A stretch of DNA of 64,000 nt, taken from the NCBI RefSeq assembly GCF_026571515.1, contig NW_026865813.1:124001-188000 (forward strand), given 5' to 3'. Origin of the DNA: Ruditapes philippinarum. Lineage: Eukaryota. Below the pieces are notes generated by a model. The model did no database searches. It was not told the origin of the DNA and worked only from the letters and a program-made list of their open reading frames with translations. The translations under genes were made by a program, and so were the position numbers. The first letter of the stretch is position 1; each line of letters begins with the position of its first letter. Shown here one piece after another: positions 20,910-47,900 of the stretch.

Positions 20910-22077
20910 ATGTGGATAAAATTTGTAGCGTTTCTCTCTTGTTGTATAATAATTTCTGCTTACCCTAACGGACCACCAAAAAGCGTGTGTAAAGACGGGA
21001 TGCCAGTTCATGTAAAAGATGGACGACATATATCCTCCTCAAAATATATCTAGCCCTTTCATCATAGACGTCAATACGACTGTTATTCGACCGGGAGAAA
21101 CCATTCGGGTCAAAGTTCGCAGCAACAAGGGCGAAATGTTTCGCGGTCTTTTTCTCCAGGTTCATCCGATTCCAAATTCCGCAAATGACGAAGTTAAATA
21201 TGAAGCCGCTGGTCTTTTCGATAGAAAGTTAAAAAATGTGAAGATCATGACGTGCAGAATACTTTTAGACACGTTGACTCATAAAGATCCATTTATGAAA
21301 ATAGAAGCTTCTTTTGATTGGAGAGCTCCCTTATATCTTACACGGAATCTTGTTGTCAGGGCGACAATTTTGAAGAATTTCGACACATATTGGCATAATG
21401 TTATGTCGCCGAAAATAACTGTGATAAAAGACGAAATATCCGAAGTTAAATCTTTGGAGAAACCTTGGCTAAAAGAAATTATTAAAACTATTAAATCTGA
21501 ATACGACGTCAGTGCTAGACGTGATATTGTAAGAGCACGATTTGAACGCGGTTTCAGACAAGCCATAGATCGTAACGGTATTGTTATGGTTAATTTTGTA
21601 ACCAATTTACTACCGTTTGAAGACAGTCATGTCCCTAGAGCTCTAAATTCTAATCAATCTGTATATTTGAAAGGTGAACCCATACAAGCAGTTTCGTTAA
21701 GTGATACTTCAAATGTTACACTGTCAACGAATGATACTAATGACATATCTCAATCAGCAGAAAATGAAAATACTACTGACATAAATTCTATTGAAAAAGT
21801 CCCTGTCGAGGAGGCTGGAGAGAATATAACCGCCGCTGAAGTTGCAACAAATGTTGAGAGTAGCTTAGACTGGGATACCGACAACGGAGAGGAGTTTAAT
21901 GATGAAGATATAGATTTTGATCACAATGTTGCGGGTTTATTTAACGAGACATTTGACATGTCTCACGAGAAGAATACGCCCATGATGGAACAATATTATG
22001 AAGTTCTTGTGAAAAGTTTGTTAAAAGGGGACGAAATGGTGGCGGATACACTAAGTGAACTCTTAGAAAATAACTAA
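20910..22077 (+). CDS. Intronless secreted Reeler-domain protein with acidic/Thr-Asn-rich tail; one frameshift near 21012-21034 in this sequence
   Basis: ATG 20910 gives a signal peptide plus Reeler start, MWIKFVAFLSCCIIISA-YPNGPPKSVCKDGMPVH, then stops at 21051. The +1 frame (ORF 21019-22077) continues PPQNISSPF...FRGLFLQV...AGLF...C....TLTH...FDWRAP...VRATILKNFDTYW, which is typical Reeler. Confidence 0.85.
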
Positions 22078-28800: not shown

Positions 28801-31800
28801 TTGTTCTGGTGCGGTCAAACTTATTGTGAAGCCTTACTTTTGGAAAAAATGACTGTTGTACAGAGGTGATTTCTCTACAGAGGTCCACTCTGTCGAGATT
28901 GTACTGTAATTACTACTTTATAGAATAATACCTTTCATCTGATATCTTCATATAACAACAGCCAACTGATGCCAAACCAACTGCTGCTTGGCAATTAACA
29001 AAGAATCGTAGAAATGTGGGTGTCAGATCACCACATGCATGTAACCCCGTCAGCATAAACTTCCAGTTGTCAACATCAAGATGACCTGTGACCTCTGACT
29101 TACAAGCAACAGAATAATCTTGACCGGTACTTAGCTGTGTATTATGCCGGCTTTTGAAATCATTGTCATCAAATGGATTCACACAACTGTCACATCCTTC
29201 AGTAGTCGTTTCCACAGAATTACACGATAAAACATGGTCATTCTTTATATCACATTTTATTGATTGAGTTTTTGATTTTTCATTTTCATTAAAGTTTGAC
29301 TTAGATGTTGTATCACTTATAGTAACAATGTTTGACTGAGTAACAGATTCTGAACAGTTTTCTAACTTCAAACAACCATCTTGTGCAATTTGTGATTCAA
29401 CTTTAGCATATTTGATATCTTTAATTCCTTCAAGTAACTGACTGTTATCCTGTGTTCTTTTATTACATTCATTTAAACGATTGATCATTTCATGATGAAC
29501 TGGTTCATTGTTGGATTCTAAATCATCACAGCTGGCATCATCTGGTTCATTCTTATGGTCAATCCTTAATGCAAGATCTTTATTGGTGACATCATAAGCA
29601 CATACCCTGTTTATTTCTGAGTCTTTATCTCTGACATTCATAGAGTTTGACACAAAAGGTTGTCTAATAGTTTCAGTGTCATAATTTTCCTGACATTGTG
29701 ACGTTATTATGGCTATAAATTCCTCGGCAGTCATGTTAGGGTAAATCATGCTCGTCACGTGGCATGGAAGAGGAACCTGTTCACTACTTTTCCCTTTAGC
29801 AGCCTGAAAAAGATATTTTACAACAAATCCCCTATTTTACTCTATAAATGCTAGGCATAATAAGGATTAACCTACACTACCAGTTTAGAGCCAGGATACG
29901 TGTTCACTAAGTGGGGTTGAGGAGGGGTAGGTTAATCAGGCTATAAATTATGAGCTATCCATTGTTAAAGATCCTGTAACACATTTTTTTCATGGTTTTA
30001 TTTCATGATATGATGCTCAAATTAAGATATTTCAATATTGTAAGTTCCAATAAGCATTATTTACAAAGATATTACCCAATTTAACATTTCATGTAAATAA
30101 AGGGAGGTAATTAGAAATTTATTTTCTATAAATTCTAAGTCAAATTTTCCAATAAGAAATGAATGCATGTAATTTATTGATTAAATATAATGTGCACAAA
30201 TATTTGCAGTACACATTTTACATATTCTTCGATGTTTGAAAATTGTTTTATTTGCATAATTATAAACATATATAATTTTTTGCAAGTGTGGTATACACAC
30301 TTATGCTCGCCCATATGGTCTCTTTTCGGTGGCGAGGGTAAACAAACCCAAACACACACACGTATACACACAGTAACAATATCAATCACAAAACATACAG
30401 GATCTTTAATATAAAGGATTTTAATATATACAGCAGAAGACAACACTGCATGATTCATTAACAAAAGAAATAAAAACACTTGAATATAGATTATTCAAAA
30501 ATTTATTATAATTCACACTACCAAAAAAAAAAACAACAACAAACAATCAAAAGTGATTTCTTGAATAAATTATGAAATATGACATAACAATATCAGAATA
30601 AATATTTCACCGGTTTGTAGAAATAGATATGCAAAAAGTGTAACACAATTATTACTTACCAATATTTTCTTTTTTATCTCTCTATCAATTTCCCTGAAAT
30701 ATTAAACTGCTGAAGTATACTTGCACTTCAAGCACAAATTTTTTTTAATTGACTCTTTAACTCTTAATATAAGCATGTTTACGGTGAAAATGCAATATGA
30801 CATTTAACTATATCGTCTTACAGCAATTCAACTACATTATTATTATCTACAGACAAGCTTGAACAACTGAGAGGTCTTACCAGAGTTTATACTGTTCATG
30901 TTGGCTGCTAAAAATTAGTATTTTGTCTTGTGTATTTAGTCTCGCGATCTATTACCGACTGAGATATGCGGGCTGGCTATTAAATTGGCAACATATAGTA
31001 AATAACTTTTTGCAACAGAAATTATGCACTGTAGCTTACCTGTCATATTTGGTGGCTTTAGGTGCATGTGTCCCTGCAGCCTCTACAGATGTTACGTTCA
31101 AGTTGTAGCCAAATGACAGCAACCTAGCCAGATGTCCTAGACCTGAACCCACATCAACAACATTCTTACAATCAATATGCTGGCTTAACATATACACAAC
31201 CTGGCATAAAAATAATATGCTGACTTAACATATACACAACCTGGCATAAAAACAATATGCTACCTTAACATATACACAACCTGGCATAAAAACAATATGC
31301 TGGCTTAACATATACACAACCTGGCATAAAAACAATATGCTGGCTTAACATATACACAACCTGGCATAAAAACAATATGCTGGCTTAACATATACACAAC
31401 CTGGCATAAAAACAATATGCTTGCTTAATACAGTTGACTCTCGGTAACTCGAAATCCAAGGGACTAGGTATTTTACTTCGAGAGAAACGGAATTCGAGTA
31501 ACGTGGGACTATCGCCATTACGTTGACTTCGTACATGTATATACATGTACCTGATTGAATGTGCAAAGAAGTAGGTTTCTTATTGTTGTTAGCGGCAATG
31601 CTGCAATATTTAACCATTGAAATGACGGTAAATCACTTTCAACTACAAATTATAAATGAACAAAAATATATCATTCAAAATTTAATACATGTATATTAAT
31701 AGTGAAACATAAAACACACAATTATATTTGATTTAATTGATCATCGGACGAAAACGAAATTAGCAACTATCGTGAACCGGAAGTACAAAATTAATGTTTG

Positions 31801-34800
31801 CAATATGACGGAACATTAATTATACAAATATCATTTACGTTGATAATACACATCAATACCTAGGCTGTTATTTGACTAGGCTGTTATTTGACTAACACCC
31901 GTCAGACTGGCACGAGTAAACTTTTTTAAAGAAATGTAATTAAATTTTAATTTAGTTATCTAATTGTTAAAAACCAATTAAGTCGTGAAACGGATTAAAG
32001 ACACTTACTTTTACGACGTGTTAATAATACATGATGACCGGCAATTAAAAATTACTATGAAACGTGTAAATCACGAGTGACAACATCTCACCTTGATGTC
32101 GCCGACCTTTGATCAGTCGGCTGTTTTCACCACTTCGACTAATTGAGATGAAAAATATGTGGACTTTAATTGACGGGACCAAATTTTCTTTTCGACTAAA
32201 CAGGAGTCTCGGTAAGTCAAAATTTGACCTAAGCGGAGTTAAAATACAAAGATAAAGAAGGAAATTTGACGGGACTTTAGAAATTATTCGACTAAGGCGG
32301 AATTTTGAGTAAAGCGATTTTGACTTATTGAGAGTCAACTGTATATACACAACCTGGTATAAAAAAACAATATGCTGGCTTAACATATACACAACCTGGT
32401 ATAAAAGCAATATGCTGGCTTAACATATACACAACCTGGCATAAAAATAATATGCTACCTTAACATATACAACAACCTGACATAAAAATAATATGCTACC
32501 TTAAGATATACACAACCTGGCATAAAAACAATATGCTTGCTTAACATATACTCAACCTGACATAAAAATAATATGCTACCTTAACATATACACAACCTGG
32601 CATAAAATCAATATGCTGGCTTAACATATACACAACCTGGCATAAAAACAATATGCTACCTTAACATATACACAACCTGGCATAAAATCAATATGCTGGC
32701 TTAACATATACACAACCTGGCATAAAAAATATTATGCTACCTTAACATATACACAATCTGGCATAAAAACAGTATGCAGACTTAAGATATACACAACCTG
32801 GCATAAAAACAATATGCTGGCTGAACATATACACAACCTGACATGCAAACAATATGCTGACTTAACATATACCGTAATAATTCTATTTAGCGCCCATCCT
32901 CTAATAGACGCCCACCCCCCATATTTTGGACAAAAAACGGCCATTTTTCAGCCCAAAGTTGAAAAATTAACTGTCCCTTTTAAACGCCCATTCCCCGATT
33001 TGAGTACAATTGAGCTTACCTTTACAATTCAAGTTTCCTTATTTCCATTTTCACGTAGGAACGAACTTCCCTTTTCTTGTCTTTTTTTCCGTAAAGTTTA
33101 TATGTACACAGTATTTCAATGCCACCACCTTTTACAAAAGTTCCTTTTGATGATGAACGCGGTTCTCCAAGTATTTTGGCACTGATTTCTACAATAAGTC
33201 CATCTTTGAATAACTTTGTAAGAGGCTGACATAATCCCTCCGGTACTGTATATGTCCAACAAGAAATCCATTTATTTTTTACGATAATTGCGCTATCACT
33301 ATGTTCATTTTCTGGTTCCAAATTACACTGAAGTATAGTTCCGACTGGGCATGTATATTTGTAAACGTGATATCCCTTAATAACAGATTTTAATAGACAC
33401 AAGCATAGGGTTTGCCATAATTCAATGTGTTTTGTGTATAAGATATATATACATGTATAAAAAAATAACCATTCCGAGATGCCAAAAACTCACGCGCCTA
33501 TTTCATTACGTCAGCAAGGTCAACGTGCGGGTTCAATGTATTGGGGCCCAACATGGAGATTAGTTCTGATTAAAAATTAATTTTGAACAATAGACGATAG
33601 TCTTTTTATATCAAAATCCCACATCAATCCTTTAAGAACATATATGCTTGTGTCAGTAAAATCGGTCAGAACTATTCTTAACTTTTTATATCTTACAATT
33701 ATATTGGTGGGTATAAAAAAATGCATAATGATCGGACTCGAAATATTCCATTGACTTTTGAATTGTATAGAACATCCCCAGATTACAGAGTTAATTGGTA
33801 CCTTTACATAATATTTCGTTGGGAAAAATCATAATATTTTTGCAGGCTCATTTTTTATTCCCCTTGCTCGGATACCGGACTCTACATGCATCGGTATTAT
33901 AAGTGCGGAAAAAGAACAGACTTTAGCCGGTACGTTACGATACCGAAATCCGACTTTAGCGTTGTCTGCAATTATAAATCAACATCCGCTCTATCTTCGG
34001 ATTCGATTTCTTCTTATAGTTATGAGGGGCGAGTGGATTTATAAAGCCTTGCTTAGAAAATTAGTTTGTCTTATGAAGATGCGTCTCCAATTAACGCCCA
34101 TCCCCAACTTTCGAAAAGTCTATGATTATAATAAAAGCCCGGGCGCTAAATAGAATTATTACGGTACATGTGTACACAACCTTGCATAAAAACAATATAT
34201 ATACCGATTGAGCATTCATACAGCCTGGGCTTAAAACATATAAGATGGCTCTATGTCAGTTGGTACTCTGGTTATAAATTAAAACAATGCCATTTATCAA
34301 GGTCATCTTGACTAACTTACTAAGTCAAAGAGTTTCTACACAATAAGAGCAATCATCTATTGAAATTTGCTGACTCTCTGTTTAATTAATGTCATATAAT
34401 AATCATAATCATAATACTGTTTGGAAAACAGTTTTCACATAAAAAAATTCTGTAACTTTGACCTATCATACCCAAAAACCTGCTGGGTCTAGCTACCTAC
34501 TAAAAAACTTGGTAATCTTCCTATGAAGTTTGAAGACACAGTGTTCTCTCCAGTTATCCATTGAAATAAAATGCTCTAATGATTAACTGACTGAGAACAA
34601 ACATTTGCAGAACAATCCCGCCTCTTCTAAATCATTATGCACAATTGTCTTTCTATAAATAAATTACATTTATCTTCACTTTTACTCCTGACATACTTTT
34701 ACTACAAACTAACTTTATTCCTTAAAAACAAACCTTTGCCAAGTTTTTAATTTCATGCCGTTTCTTTGGTTTCACGTGTTTCTTGAAAAAAGCATGTAGC

Positions 34801-42905: not shown

Positions 42906-44939
42906 ATTTCTTATCCTCCTATCTCCTTTCGTCTTCTTTTTCTTCTGTTTCCTATTTTCCAGTTACAATTACACCGACGTCTACTGTAAAATAAGAAGTC
43001 CTCATGTGCCCCTTTGTGAATAACAAGACTTGAGCGGACACTCGAGTAGAACTAACGCCCTTCAGTAAAGCCATACTTCATGAGCTTTTGGAAAACAATG
43101 CCCTATTTATATTCAAAATCTAACGGTTACAAATTCAAATGTTAACGAATCAAAACCTGTTCTTCAGATGGCAAAGGAAAATACCTTTCACCATTTCTTG
43201 TACGACATTATTTAAATCTTTAAAGGGGGCCATTTTAAAAACCAATGCAAAGACATTTTTGCTACGATTTTTATAACGTAATCGGCGTCCGCTTTTTTTT
43301 TTTTATTTTTTTGGGGGCCGCGCCCCCACGGACAATAAACCACATTTTAACATGGGTTTTGGCGACCCTAGGATCGAATCCAGACCTACTCGCAGCATTC
43401 CCCGGCCCGCCGCCCTCCCCGAACGAAGCGGAATGATGCTTTTTGGGGGGCTGGTCAGTTTTTCTACCTTGCCAATAGGGTTTTAATTGCGAACCCCAGC
43501 ATGGAAAACCTGATTAAGACTGTTTCGAAGCGCAGGCTGTCTCAGATTCCATGCTTTGTGTAAAAACCATTTAAAAATTGGTTTTGTTCATGAGCGGCTT
43601 CAAATTTTTGATTATTGACAGAAAACTAGTAAGTAGAAAAAAGAGAGAAAGAAAATGAACGCAATTATGGTAAAATTAACTAACAATAATTACGGTTTTA
43701 TGAGCGTAGGTTCAAATAGAAACACACGCTAAGTTTAACAATCAAATCAACTTAGGAATATGTAGTGAAAAGCAATTAAAATATCCTGACTCGGATTATA
43801 AAGTCAACGATAATCTTTGAAGATTATCCGACTGTTCGTTAATCTAAGCATTCGAGGTTACTGCGCTCTTTGTCCGTCGGAAAGATAATAACATTGATTT
43901 CTATTATTTACAAATCTTTCATTATACAAATGCTTGGCTAACAATAAACAAACAAAAAACCCTCCGTTATACAATACACAACAAGAATAGAATTGTTAAA
44001 CAATAGTACAGGGCATGTTGTGTACAAAGCTACCTATTAATCATATCAGTTATTGTGAACAGTCGTTCCATATTGATTCAAATTGTAAAATAACGCAAGT
44101 GTTGGTTTTATTTAATACTTAAAACGTTTTTAAACTTGTTTCATAAATGGAGTATTGAACAGGCATGATTCAAACATAATTGGTATTTCTATTGAACATT
44201 TGTTCTTTCATTATATTTCTATTACAAGATGTGTTCAAATGGTTTTCTATTTCTTACGCGGAAAATGGGCAAAAAAAGTGTATAGATAATAGCTGCAGTT
44301 TTGAATAGTGCATTATTGATGGATTCAACAAAATTTATTGTGGTAAAATTATGCGTCATTGCATGCGATGTTTTGTTAATATAATTAAAGATTTGCGACC
44401 AGAAAATTTATGAGATATAAAGAAAATGGGATGATCAGTTTAAAGAAAATGAATCAAGGATTTTATTCACAGCAAACACACATCTGTCAGTAAGTTCGGA
44501 TTATTTCAAACATCTTTAATTGAATTCACATTATATCAAAATATATTAATTCTATTGATTAACATTCAGAAATAAAGGAAACGTTTTATCAAAAAACATT
44601 TTAACTTGCATTGAAAAAATCCGACTGAGGTTTTGCTACTAGTATGTCAGATTCAATCGCAATTTTTAGACCCTAAGGACTATTATCAATAATAAGCGAG
44701 GAGTTCCGATTGTATCGGATTAAAATATTTTTGAACGTGATACACGACATTACAATCTGAACGAGAATCATTGAAAATACATGTATAAACACACTGTTTT
44801 GCAAACAATTGTAAAAATAGACAGCGAACTGGAATATTTACGGAAGAGGTAAATCGTGCCTAGAATATCTACACTTGTATATTCTTTAGGTAGATTAAAA
44901 CAAAAACAAAAACAAAAAAAAGAAAACAACTCAAACGTC

Positions 44940-47900
44940 ATGGCGGACTTTGAGTCTCAGTCATGGAAAGATCGCTGTGACAGATACTTTACATCTATTT
45001 CTGATACAGGAAAAGATCGTGATCAAGAAAAAACGGCGAAAAATGACTCAGAAAATTCGCGAGAAAAACGTGCAAGTCTAGATGATTTCTTCGATGATGG
45101 AGAGAAAGGTTGGAAAGATCTTTCAGAAATAAAGAAGGCTTTCTCTGAACATTGGTTTTTACGTCATATCAGAAATGCTCTTTCAGTGCTGGATATACAC
45201 GGCTCAAATATAGCCAGCAAAGCGAAAAACACCGTTGGATTTACAATTTGGGCGATTCTTACTTTAGTGTCTGTTATCACGTTTGGAATTTTATTATATT
45301 TTATGTTGCAGGAATATTTAAATAGGCCCTCTAGTTTTCGTGTTACTAGTTTATCAACTTCAGAACGAGTAGTTTCATCTGACATCTCACTGACAGTGTG
45401 TAATTTGAACGTAATTAAAAAATCTAGACTGCCTGACACAGGATTAAACGAGTTGCACAAATTCGTGTCTGGTGAAACTAAAGCTGCACCAAGAACAGAA
45501 AAAGTCACCGTCAAAGAAATGATAGAGAGTAATGAAAAACTGACTGAGTTTGTTACGGAACATAACCCTGGCAAAGTATCAGAGTTAGTTAAAAGTATTG
45601 AAAATGATGTTATTGTGCAGGAACTTATACATTCGTCGGAAGAATCGTTATTGTTCCGTCTTAGTAAATATGCAAGACCGCAGATATTAAGAGAAGTAAC
45701 TCATATCACTAAGGATGATGTAGAAAGAGCTGGACACGTGACTAATGAGACATTGGTCCAATGCTGGAGAGATAACTCAGAATGTCAATTAAGGTAAGAT
45801 ATTTTATTACTTATTTTATTCAACATTTCAGGGAAGAAACGTTTGCTAATGTTATGAGAACTCGCGATGAGCGGCCAAGTGGTTAACCACAAACTATAGG
45901 CACGTGTAAAGAATAGTACTAAATACAAAGTACCTTGAAATAGTGGAATGGAATTACATGTACAAGTCTGGCGATCGAATTATTTTATGGAATACATGAA
46001 ATAAATTTTGTTTATCACATACTCAAAATAAGAACAGTTAACAGTAAAAAAGATTTTTTTCCTTCAGTAGTTAATACTGTAACGCTACAACTAGCATGTG
46101 TTGACGCTATGTACATTACATTTGGACGACCGTGACTTTCCATTTTTTACGGAGTCGTAAAACTGCACGGGCATATCTTCAATATTATAGACCATGTAAT
46201 GATAATTAGAAAAGCTTAAAGCGAAGCATTTTTTCTGTAGCAGGGACATTCATACGGACAGTGATTCTGAAGAAGGCAATTGTGTTGTTGTTGGTGGTCT
46301 TAGAAATTCTACACAAGGTAAGACTCTTAGACCATTATAGAGAAAACTTTATTCATTTTGATAACGACTCATGAACCAACTTTTTCAGACCCGCCACTAA
46401 CCCCCTCCCGGCAAACACTTCATATAGGTCCGATGTCATCAGTATCGGACTGATATCGTCATCTGATGTCAGTATGTCTATTTTGGATAGATATCGGTCC
46501 GATATCGGAAGACCGACTGCAATATTCCGACTTATAGCCGATATAGGTCCGATAGGTATGATTGCTAGGCTGCCACCCCATCCACTCTACCTACAATTAA
46601 AAAGAGTTTAACTAAGAACTAATTACCTTTTCCTTTGATATATTGTTACATCCGTCTTAATGCACGTTCCGCTTCTTTACAGCTAGAAACTATCCGAAAT
46701 ATCCATATATTTGAACGACAAAATTTGTCCTTACGTTCGCATACAAATACAAATGTAGCAATAGGATATAAATTTATAGTATAACACGTACAATAAAGTA
46801 ACTGAAGTACAAAGAATTTGTATAATCCACATGTAATCCGCACCATCTGTCTACAGAAACTGTACACATCTCAAATATCAGTTAGATATTTATGATGAGC
46901 AAGTATTTGCATAAATAAACCAGCTATAAATGATTTGTGTATCAGTTCAAATACACGAATAGCAAAAAAGAATATCAAAAGCAGTGACATTTGGTGGGTG
47001 CAGAACGATAAAAAATATGCTGTTTTTCTTTTCATTTTATCATTATCCAACCAGTCAAGTCTTTTTCTTACCTTCTATAAAAGCAATCAGACGGATCATA
47101 ATGATTCAAATTGAATATAAGTATTAACTTGCAATTCCTATGTACTTATTTGAAAAATACTGATCTCCCTTTTGGATTTTTTTTCTTGTTTTCAGTAGAC
47201 ATTGTCTTGAATGCCCAGACAGACGAGTACATACACCAAATAACTCCTTCAGTTGGATTTAAGGTGTATCTAAGTGACAGTGATGGCACACACTTGTTTT
47301 CAAGTTCAGTGATAGAGATATCACCGGGATTTCGTTCAACAATATCCCTGAATAAGGTACGTTGTCACTTCCAGCATGCTTAGATAGCTAGACTTCTTTT
47401 ACTTTGTACATGTGTTAAACAAATAATCAGTTTTTTTTTATTTTGCTCACTAAGAACTAGTTCTTGAGAATGGTTTTCGCTCGTGGGCCACAAATGGCGA
47501 CTCAGATTAAATGTAAATTTCATTAAAAAGATACATACAGTCCAAGAATGATACCCATTTGGTCCAAGTAAAACGGCAACTAAAAGTATGTTTCGGCAGA
47601 GTGCCATAATTATATTGATCACACTGTCCGTTCGTAACATACATGTTACATTTACAACTATGACAATAGGAAAAAAACTGTCGCTGAGTGAACGTTTTGT
47701 TGTTTCCAGGTGACAACAGTTACGCGTTTGGAGAGGTCTTGTAGCTCGTCCAGTGGTAGCAAAGCGGTAAGTACGTATTACTAATCTAACTTGTTATATA
47801 TTTATGATATTACAATGCATATAAATATTTTAGTGGAATATGAAAAGCCTGATAAAAAAGTACTCTGCAACTTAAGAAAATTACGAACATACTCAATGCC

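Follow-up and report, generated by a model that had tools for sequence, protein, structure and literature searches.

Background

The prevailing view of pogo elements is that they are one-gene transposons, and animal cut-and-paste elements in general are held to leave the protection of their ends and the repair of the donor site to the host. Excision of the Tc1/mariner type leaves 3' overhangs of 2–3 nt. MITEs have no coding capacity and are shorter than about 800 bp. The Passer family within the pogo superfamily is reportedly the subject of papers by Gao et al. in 2020 and Wang et al. in 2023, and the multi-gene Mariner and Fanzor-only elements of giant viruses are said to have been studied by Bao and Jurka in 2013; Cael-PasserC of C. 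elegans is presumably identical to Tc2.

In the portion of Table S1 of PMC7386202 considered here, Passer elements have CCGTA ends, TA target-site duplications, a DD35D transposase, and terminal inverted repeats (TIRs) of 23–29 bp; elements of the pogoR type have CAGT ends. Passer is described with a single transposase ORF; for pogo elements as a whole, the number of transposase-encoding ORFs is given as one or two (PMC7386202). According to the excerpts of PMC9976928 used here, Passer is active in human cells and leaves footprints of 0–4 bp, and the supplement lists 24-bp TIRs that end in CGCCC for Dendronephthya and Plectus.

In the HIRAN domain of HLTF, residue D94 reads the 3'-OH, and the two 3'-terminal bases are pinched between Y72 and Y93 (excerpt of PMC5773155); HLTF removes Cas9 from cut ends by means of this domain (excerpt of PMC11237066). 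With respect to mobile elements, the sole remark on the domain in PMC3417536 is that it originated in phages. A search of titles and the beginnings of abstracts, with Repbase, Dfam, FASTA supplements, and most subscription papers outside its scope, yielded no description of HIRAN in pogo/mariner elements or any other eukaryotic transposon; for the term "HIRAN", the count is 0 both in the main texts of PMC7325037, PMC7386202, PMC3627910, and PMC6431247 and in the PMC9976928 supplement.

The window, i.e., the entire 64,000-nt stretch of Ruditapes philippinarum DNA that was analyzed, contains an element with a broken copy of a gene for a HIRAN-fold protein. The explanation that we favor, with moderate confidence, is that it represents a non-autonomous Passer-type pogo transposon that descends from a two-gene ancestor and whose HIRAN protein is a selected accessory factor.

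A multi-copy element with Passer-type ends

The element (32872–34164; 1,293 bp) has TIRs that are identical at 24 of 24 bases and is bordered by a TA outside each end (Table 1). No perfect inverted repeat in the region is longer than the one formed by the TIRs together with these TAs (26 nt); the best of 200 shuffles reached 14 nt. Alignment of contigs to positions 32850–34260 (four runs, each from a different study) revealed, in runs X1 and X8, an empty allele in which the left flank (32856–32869) is joined via one TA to the unique right flank. The TA is therefore a true target-site duplication, and the earlier note, which had described perfect 24-bp TIRs and a TA duplication, was correct on both counts. 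Loose contig ends with differing flanks start at 32865–32870 and at 34166–34171, that is, at both termini. The sequencing depth of the element relative to its flank is ~115 vs 5.7 in run X8 and ~1,000 vs 23–65 in run X1, which amounts to roughly 20 copies if depth is read as a rough guide and not as a copy number. No second copy was found within the 64-kb window. The runs that contain the element include mollusc metagenomes and, with a small share, one echinoderm metagenome.

Table 1. Features of the element and its insertion site (positions refer to the window; L001 is a divergent family described below).
Feature	Position	Strand	Evidence or remark
Host 40-bp minisatellite; element inserted at array end	32359..32869	+	One further unit at ~34173–34198
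Left TA of target-site duplication	32870..32871	.	Single TA in empty allele, runs X1 and X8
Left TIR, 24 bp, Passer-type; starts with CCGTA, ends with CGCCC	32872..32895	+	Inverted-repeat match; Passer tables in the parts of the PMC7386202 and PMC9976928 supplements considered
Subterminal region with repeats of the TIR inner motif; conserved in L001	32896..33021	+	77% identity over terminal 60 columns
Putative splice-donor-like site AG/GTAAG just past the stop codon	33014..33021	-	GGTAAG also after the stop in L001 (1460–1466)
HIRAN-fold gene, pointing outward to left terminus; pseudogene here, intact (129 aa) in the family	33022..33418	-	
5-bp insertion, TA to TA-CAG-TA (minus strand), ORF-breaking	33244..33250		Bases absent from the dominant contig in 4/4 runs
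1-bp insertion found only in this copy, within a homopolymer run (either a mutation or an error of the assembly)	33271		
1-bp insertion in homopolymer run, separates Met from main frame	33392		
Non-coding internal part, presumed promoter	33419..34140	.	0 Pfam matches in six frames, 0 Rfam matches
Right TIR, 24 bp	34141..34164	-	Inverted-repeat match
Right TA of target-site duplication	34165..34166	.	Flank sequence and empty allele

The nearest TIRs are those of Passer elements from Dendronephthya, Plectus, and Amphimedon in the tabulated rows considered, and the Plectus row of the PMC9976928 supplement also shares the subterminal unit GGGCGTCTATTAGAG with the window element. Of the features that define Passer, the element has the TA duplication and TIRs of less than 30 bp (24 bp) with a CCGTA end; a DD35D transposase that contains HTH_Tnp_Tc5, be it alone or together with BrkDBD, is missing from its interior. 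The earlier observation that no DDE transposase is visible holds up, as a Pfam scan of all six frames of 33419–34164 returned 0 matches and no transposase remnant. Weak plus-strand matches to pieces of HIRAN between 33480 and 33790 are non-collinear and were rejected as chance. Because of the 0 Pfam matches in six frames, the element is no autonomous member of Passer and is filed as a Passer-type non-autonomous derivative. A transposase with exactly this TIR was not found in the sequences searched. Among the read pieces listed, none reaches past the element, and joints were not observed. The subterminal repeats of the TIR inner motif are probably binding sites of the transposase.

The insertion site lies in an intron of a minus-strand host gene with a Methyltransf_32 domain, which we take to be METTL25B-like; the flanking exons are located at ~34.73–34.85 kb and 31.04–31.18 kb. 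The 40-bp unit of the minisatellite is similar to the sequence found where the following host exon has its acceptor end (31170–31200), and the array may derive from that intron–exon junction. At 34165–34174, the empty allele already contains extra bases relative to the minisatellite unit (TA-CATGTG-TA), which may represent a footprint left earlier at this TA. Two further observations concern run X8: two contigs diverge from the element at position 33687 (median of 127 unlike letters), possibly due to an insertion or a junction to a longer form, and a second subfamily, ~84% identical, spans 32919–33261. Other host genes in the window are represented by a Reeler-domain ORF (21016–22074, plus strand) and an exon of an amiloride-sensitive sodium channel (ASC; 44853–45794, plus strand).

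A HIRAN-fold gene that is broken in this copy

The cargo of the element had been described as an ORF of 126 aa with a HIRAN-like pattern. In the window copy, the frame is not open. Three insertions disrupt it, two of 1 bp each (at 33392 and at 33271) and one of 5 bp (at 33243); the Met codon (33416–33418, minus strand) is out of frame with the main frame, which comprises 155 codons from stop to stop, and ten codons in the middle of the ORF are out of register. The dominant contigs of all four runs lack all three frameshifting insertions. Both 1-bp insertions could be assembly errors; the 5-bp insertion alone destroys the frame, and its form, TA-CAG-TA, is presumably the usual shape of an excision footprint of Tc1/mariner/pogo elements. 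The intact family products P0028 and P0002 comprise 129 aa; their identity with the broken frame is 85% and 82%, respectively. Among the private substitutions of the window copy, three of the five tested are non-synonymous. As part of the favored explanation, the family would probably have amplified with the HIRAN gene intact, and the window copy would have lost its frame later.

Evidence for the HIRAN fold comes from the intact members of the family. All 10 intact relatives match PF08797 (Pfam), six of them above the curated cut-off (P0002, 27.8 bits; cut-off 24.7), whereas the window copy's own frames gave 0 Pfam matches. In a Foldseek search with an AlphaFold2 model of the family protein (pLDDT 72, 13 sequences), the top 13 matches were HIRAN domains of HLTF (best E value 7e-5, TM 0.66). 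VIA-align superimposed 113 residues on HLTF's HIRAN domain (4XZG; Z 10.7, rmsd 3.0), followed by lp_0118 (PDB 3K2Y; Z 8.9) and Rad5 (Z 7.7), with unrelated entries at 5.6 or less. The neighbors in the ESM Atlas are HIRAN clusters at 0.92–0.93; an unnamed diatom cluster ranks first. The fold suspected from the sequence pattern is thus matched by the model, in which the family protein is a HIRAN fold consisting of an OB-like β-barrel with flanking helices.

A splice-donor-like GGTAAG is situated within 2–5 nt past the stop codon in both the window family and L001. Since the window copy lies in sense orientation in a host intron, transcripts of the element could splice out into host exons. RNA contigs X15 and X17 cover the ORF of this intronic copy together with the TIRs and flanks and are therefore no proof of a transcript of the HIRAN gene.

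A remodeled binding pocket

When mapped onto HLTF by a weak sequence alignment (E value 0.07) and not by structural superposition, the pocket of the close group differs from that of HLTF at four positions: D94 is replaced by S (68/68), K113 by E (61/63), Y72 by V (62/66), and R71 by H (64/66). The pocket that accommodates the 3'-OH in HLTF, with D94 and the stacking between Y72 and Y93, is not present in this group. Because of these changes, binding of 3'-OH ends is doubtful for the close subfamily, and its substrate may differ from that of HLTF; we rate the binding of DNA ends by these proteins at slightly less than an even chance. What survives of the earlier proposal of a transposon family with an accessory DNA-end-binding protein is the HIRAN fold and the conserved, multi-copy ORF; the end-binding part is weakened by the altered pocket residues.

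The same element could contain a HIRAN fold that now serves as a protein- or metal-binding module and no longer binds DNA ends, for instance as a cofactor of the transposase or as an anti-silencing adaptor like the HIRAN-Ulp1 fusions. The acidic and serine substitutions in the pocket, the near-invariant residues His17, His55, Cys31, and Cys102, and the presence of an Ulp1-like C48 domain in 56 of 119 long relatives are consistent with such a role. However, N91, Y73, and H110 are kept in the close group, and the position of Y93 is occupied by H or Y in 67 of 68 sequences; the C-terminal helix of the family protein is strongly basic, and the distant group with the long forms retains D94 (118/119) and a basic residue (R or K) at K113 (116/119). 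We consider this alternative rather unlikely, and return to the reading of the HIRAN protein as a selected accessory factor.

Conservation of the gene and its terminus

A total of 1,140 clusters (50% identity) match the HIRAN profile; of the best 150, 147 are no longer than 186 aa. Close relatives number 25 (35–90% identity), and one 90% cluster has 72 members, of which those listed are located on separate long contigs. Families at 55–87% identity keep one open frame of ~129 aa. A search of metagenome contigs yielded two loci; one of them (L002), a GC-rich match of 27 residues, was dropped. The other (L001; MOXH01003663.1) encodes a protein with 57% identity and shows, ~150 bp past the stop codon, the same terminus ending in TA, on a contig that lacks the other end of the element. 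Between the window ORF and L001, the identity is 0.67/0.80/0.37 at the three codon positions (122/124 codons), with a pN of 0.28 and a pS of 0.76, which is saturated. Outside the gene, the identity decreases from 77% in the terminal 60 columns to 66% between stop and terminus and 42% upstream of the ORF. The HIRAN ORF is therefore conserved at the protein level, with ORF and terminus traveling together across 57% identity; in the terms of the earlier note, it is neither restricted to this copy nor neutral in its evolution. Upstream of the HIRAN ORF in L001 (780–970), a donor-like GTAAGT and several box motifs, which we take to be CCAAT-like boxes and YY1-like and ETS-like motifs, suggest that the ORF is preceded by a promoter and by a first exon of small size.

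Among 365 predicted relatives, the tails of four are frameshifted and run into the subterminal motif of the window element (the best, P0123, with an E value of 3e-6 to the element's left end), and that of a fifth runs into another TIR-like motif. A presumed relative of 2,620 aa (P0168) turned out to be a false match to a repeat protein. At least 120 of 173 long relatives consist of HIRAN with or without an Ulp1-like C48 protease domain; the C48 domain was detected in 38 of 60 at E ≤ 0.01 and in 18 of 59 at E ≤ 0.001. Among them is a large multi-copy family (P0212–P0331) of HIRAN fusions with an Ulp1-like (C48) domain, 300–460 aa in length, which has kept the D94 pocket and may represent accessory genes of transposons. 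Neither the viral contigs, searched with three profiles and the exact TIR pattern, nor the genome contigs, searched with the close profile, contained related loci.

These data also bear on the idea that TIR elements picked up a HIRAN gene of host or viral origin as a passive cargo, useless for transposition and still intact only as the family is young. Proteins of DNA transposons act in trans, and a non-autonomous element gains little from the upkeep of an ORF; the window copy decays freely, as seen from its private substitutions, and many TIR elements carry no HIRAN. Against a passive cargo speak the frame of ~129 aa, which has remained open at 55–87% identity, the joint conservation of ORF and terminus, and the recurrence of HIRAN in elements with Passer- and pogoR-type ends. 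A single capture followed by drift is unlikely because the frame has been kept while synonymous sites became saturated. Overall, passive carriage is very unlikely, and selection on the accessory gene of a pogo transposon remains the preferred interpretation.

HIRAN genes in other pogo elements

A Passer element that apparently carries both genes is Amqu-PasserB of Amphimedon (ACUQ01001047.1:4648–6854), for which the part of PMC7386202 Table S1 considered here gives four copies, a length of 2,207 bp, and a DD35D transposase of 459 aa. By visual inspection of its first 400 nt, it contains an unannotated HIRAN-type ORF with an ATG ~145 nt inside the TIR; within this displayed stretch, the ORF may be either separate from the transposase or joined to it. 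Its motifs include SVIRGHHVYK, NPHD, and GHMP, and at the invariant columns of the HIRAN-family alignment (A8), it deviates only by one V-to-I exchange. In most other Passer rows considered, visual inspection of the first 400 nt, and hence of a single end, revealed no HIRAN, so that HIRAN seems to be a feature of a subset of Passer families, judged from the displayed ends. The autonomous partner to be looked for according to the earlier note, encoding both transposase and HIRAN, thus has a counterpart in Amqu-PasserB, although no transposase with the TIR of the window element was found.

Further cases come from the eukaryote-like contigs in the bin of genome G001, which contain ten HIRAN matches at eight loci. 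A HIRAN fragment (L026) lies inside a TA-bounded CCGTA element of 392 bp with identical ends. At L024, the HIRAN gene is followed after 325 bp by a pogoR-like TA/CAGTG terminus and preceded at a distance of ~160 bp by a C-terminal fragment of DDE_1 on the opposite strand (divergent orientation). Such an arrangement would be expected if a two-gene element had undergone an internal deletion, and it matches the outward-pointing gene in the window element. A similar terminus is present 352 bp downstream of HIRAN at L031, and a Passer-like terminus 81 bp upstream at L022. No partner TIR was found within 10–18 kb for L024, L022, L031, L029, and L032.

In a first rough test against 340 kb of control DNA, HIRAN was next to a terminus at 3/8 loci of G001 (P ~0.09), but this test failed to recover the termini present in the window itself, and tandem repeats raised its background too far; a second rough test gave 1/8 loci (P ~0.2–0.3). 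A general link between HIRAN and TIRs is therefore suggested, with no statistical proof. The notion that stand-alone HIRAN ORFs of invertebrates are cargo of TIR elements is borne out by several clear cases and not by a significant overall association. Elements with the same type of TIR at L013 and L017 have no HIRAN, nor do many TIR elements in G001. A loose TIR pattern recovered nine viral and ten genome loci, none of which (0/19) has a HIRAN match; most of the viral loci look like chance, and eukaryotic contamination that bears Passer-type ends is the apparent source of L012, L013, L016, L017, and L020. As a side observation, bacterial and archaeal genomes in GTDB (G001 contigs C41, C51, and C64; L012, L013, L016, and L020) contain eukaryote-like contigs (as long as 1.6 Mb in G001) with pogo elements and MITEs, i.e., binning contamination.

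It is extremely improbable that the HIRAN ORF is a detached N-terminal exon or domain of a HIRAN–transposase fusion, as might be suspected from the position of the ORF in the displayed 400 nt of Amqu-PasserB (a possible start of the transposase) and the conserved donor-like site after the stop, given that the genes of the window element and L001 end in a stop codon ~150 bp from the terminus and point outward, that 0 of 7,999 candidates are longer forms of the close profile (in itself weak evidence), that 0 of 120 long relatives among those listed (of 173) have DDE_1 or HTH_Tnp_Tc5, and that HIRAN and DDE_1 lie on opposite strands at L024.

Proposed origin and role of the accessory gene

The descent of the window element from a two-gene Passer-type transposon builds on observations made at the locus itself (TIRs, target-site duplication, empty site, and many copies); the identity of the partner family is deduced from the likeness of the TIRs. 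A DD35D transposase acting in trans would recognize the CCGTA TIRs and insert the element at TA. The element would have arisen by internal deletion from an ancestor with a transposase and a HIRAN gene, which is a better reading than the class defined by the absence of a transposase that was proposed earlier. The HIRAN protein might act, with a probability we place just below one half, at the short 3' overhangs that are left by excision, either on the element or at the donor site. There it would cap the overhangs or act as a competitor of HLTF or other HIRAN proteins of the host; as a result, the ends would survive, or the repair of the donor break would favor the element.

The predicted fold, the conservation at the protein level, and the recurrence in pogo ends indicate that, in some pogo families, HIRAN is a cargo under selection. 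Autonomous ancestors with two genes are the most likely stage at which this selection acted, and the intact ORF in a family without transposase may simply reflect a recent derivation. Some animal pogo transposons may therefore carry a helper protein that is not described in the literature searched.

A more far-reaching extension, which we put forward tentatively and consider somewhat doubtful, is that the stand-alone HIRAN and HIRAN-Ulp1 ORFs of invertebrates (the 1,140 clusters) are mostly accessory genes of pogo elements (Passer and pogoR), constituting an overlooked second gene whose product caps 3' overhangs or acts as a decoy for HLTF and thereby raises transposition or steers donor-site repair. 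If true, this would provide an origin for many of the "uncharacterized HIRAN proteins" annotated in invertebrates, a part of which may belong to transposons and not to host repair, and the addition of HIRAN could alter the efficiency or the footprint of Passer-based gene-transfer vectors. The activity of Passer in human cells makes a helper role of HIRAN directly testable.

Comparison with known systems

Like MITEs, the window element is non-autonomous, has short TIRs and a TA duplication, and is moved in trans; it differs from them by its size of 1.3 kb and a conserved protein-coding gene and is not a MITE. With the Passer family (pogo superfamily, DD35D; portions of PMC7386202 and PMC9976928), it shares the TA duplication, TIRs of less than 30 bp, the CCGTA start, and subterminal repeats of the inner motif. 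By contrast, Passer elements have one transposase ORF, in place of which the window element has a gene for a HIRAN-fold protein.

The multi-gene Mariner and Fanzor-only elements of giant viruses, as presented in the part of PMC3627910 considered here, are likewise TA-targeting TIR elements with accessory ORFs, and one of them, PUl-4, resembles the window element in having no transposase and keeping only the accessory gene. Their cargo, however, is a Fanzor, an endonuclease, or a methyltransferase, and not HIRAN.

Among the known HIRAN proteins (HLTF, Rad5, and the stand-alone bacterial lp_0118), the likeness of the family protein lies in the same fold and the retention of N91, Y73, and H110. 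Compared with the HIRAN domain of HLTF, it has a conserved GxF/WxxGGGxEIPC insertion and a basic C-terminal helix, and D94, K113, Y72, and R71 are replaced. It differs from all of them as a stand-alone protein of 129 aa that is encoded inside a transposon.
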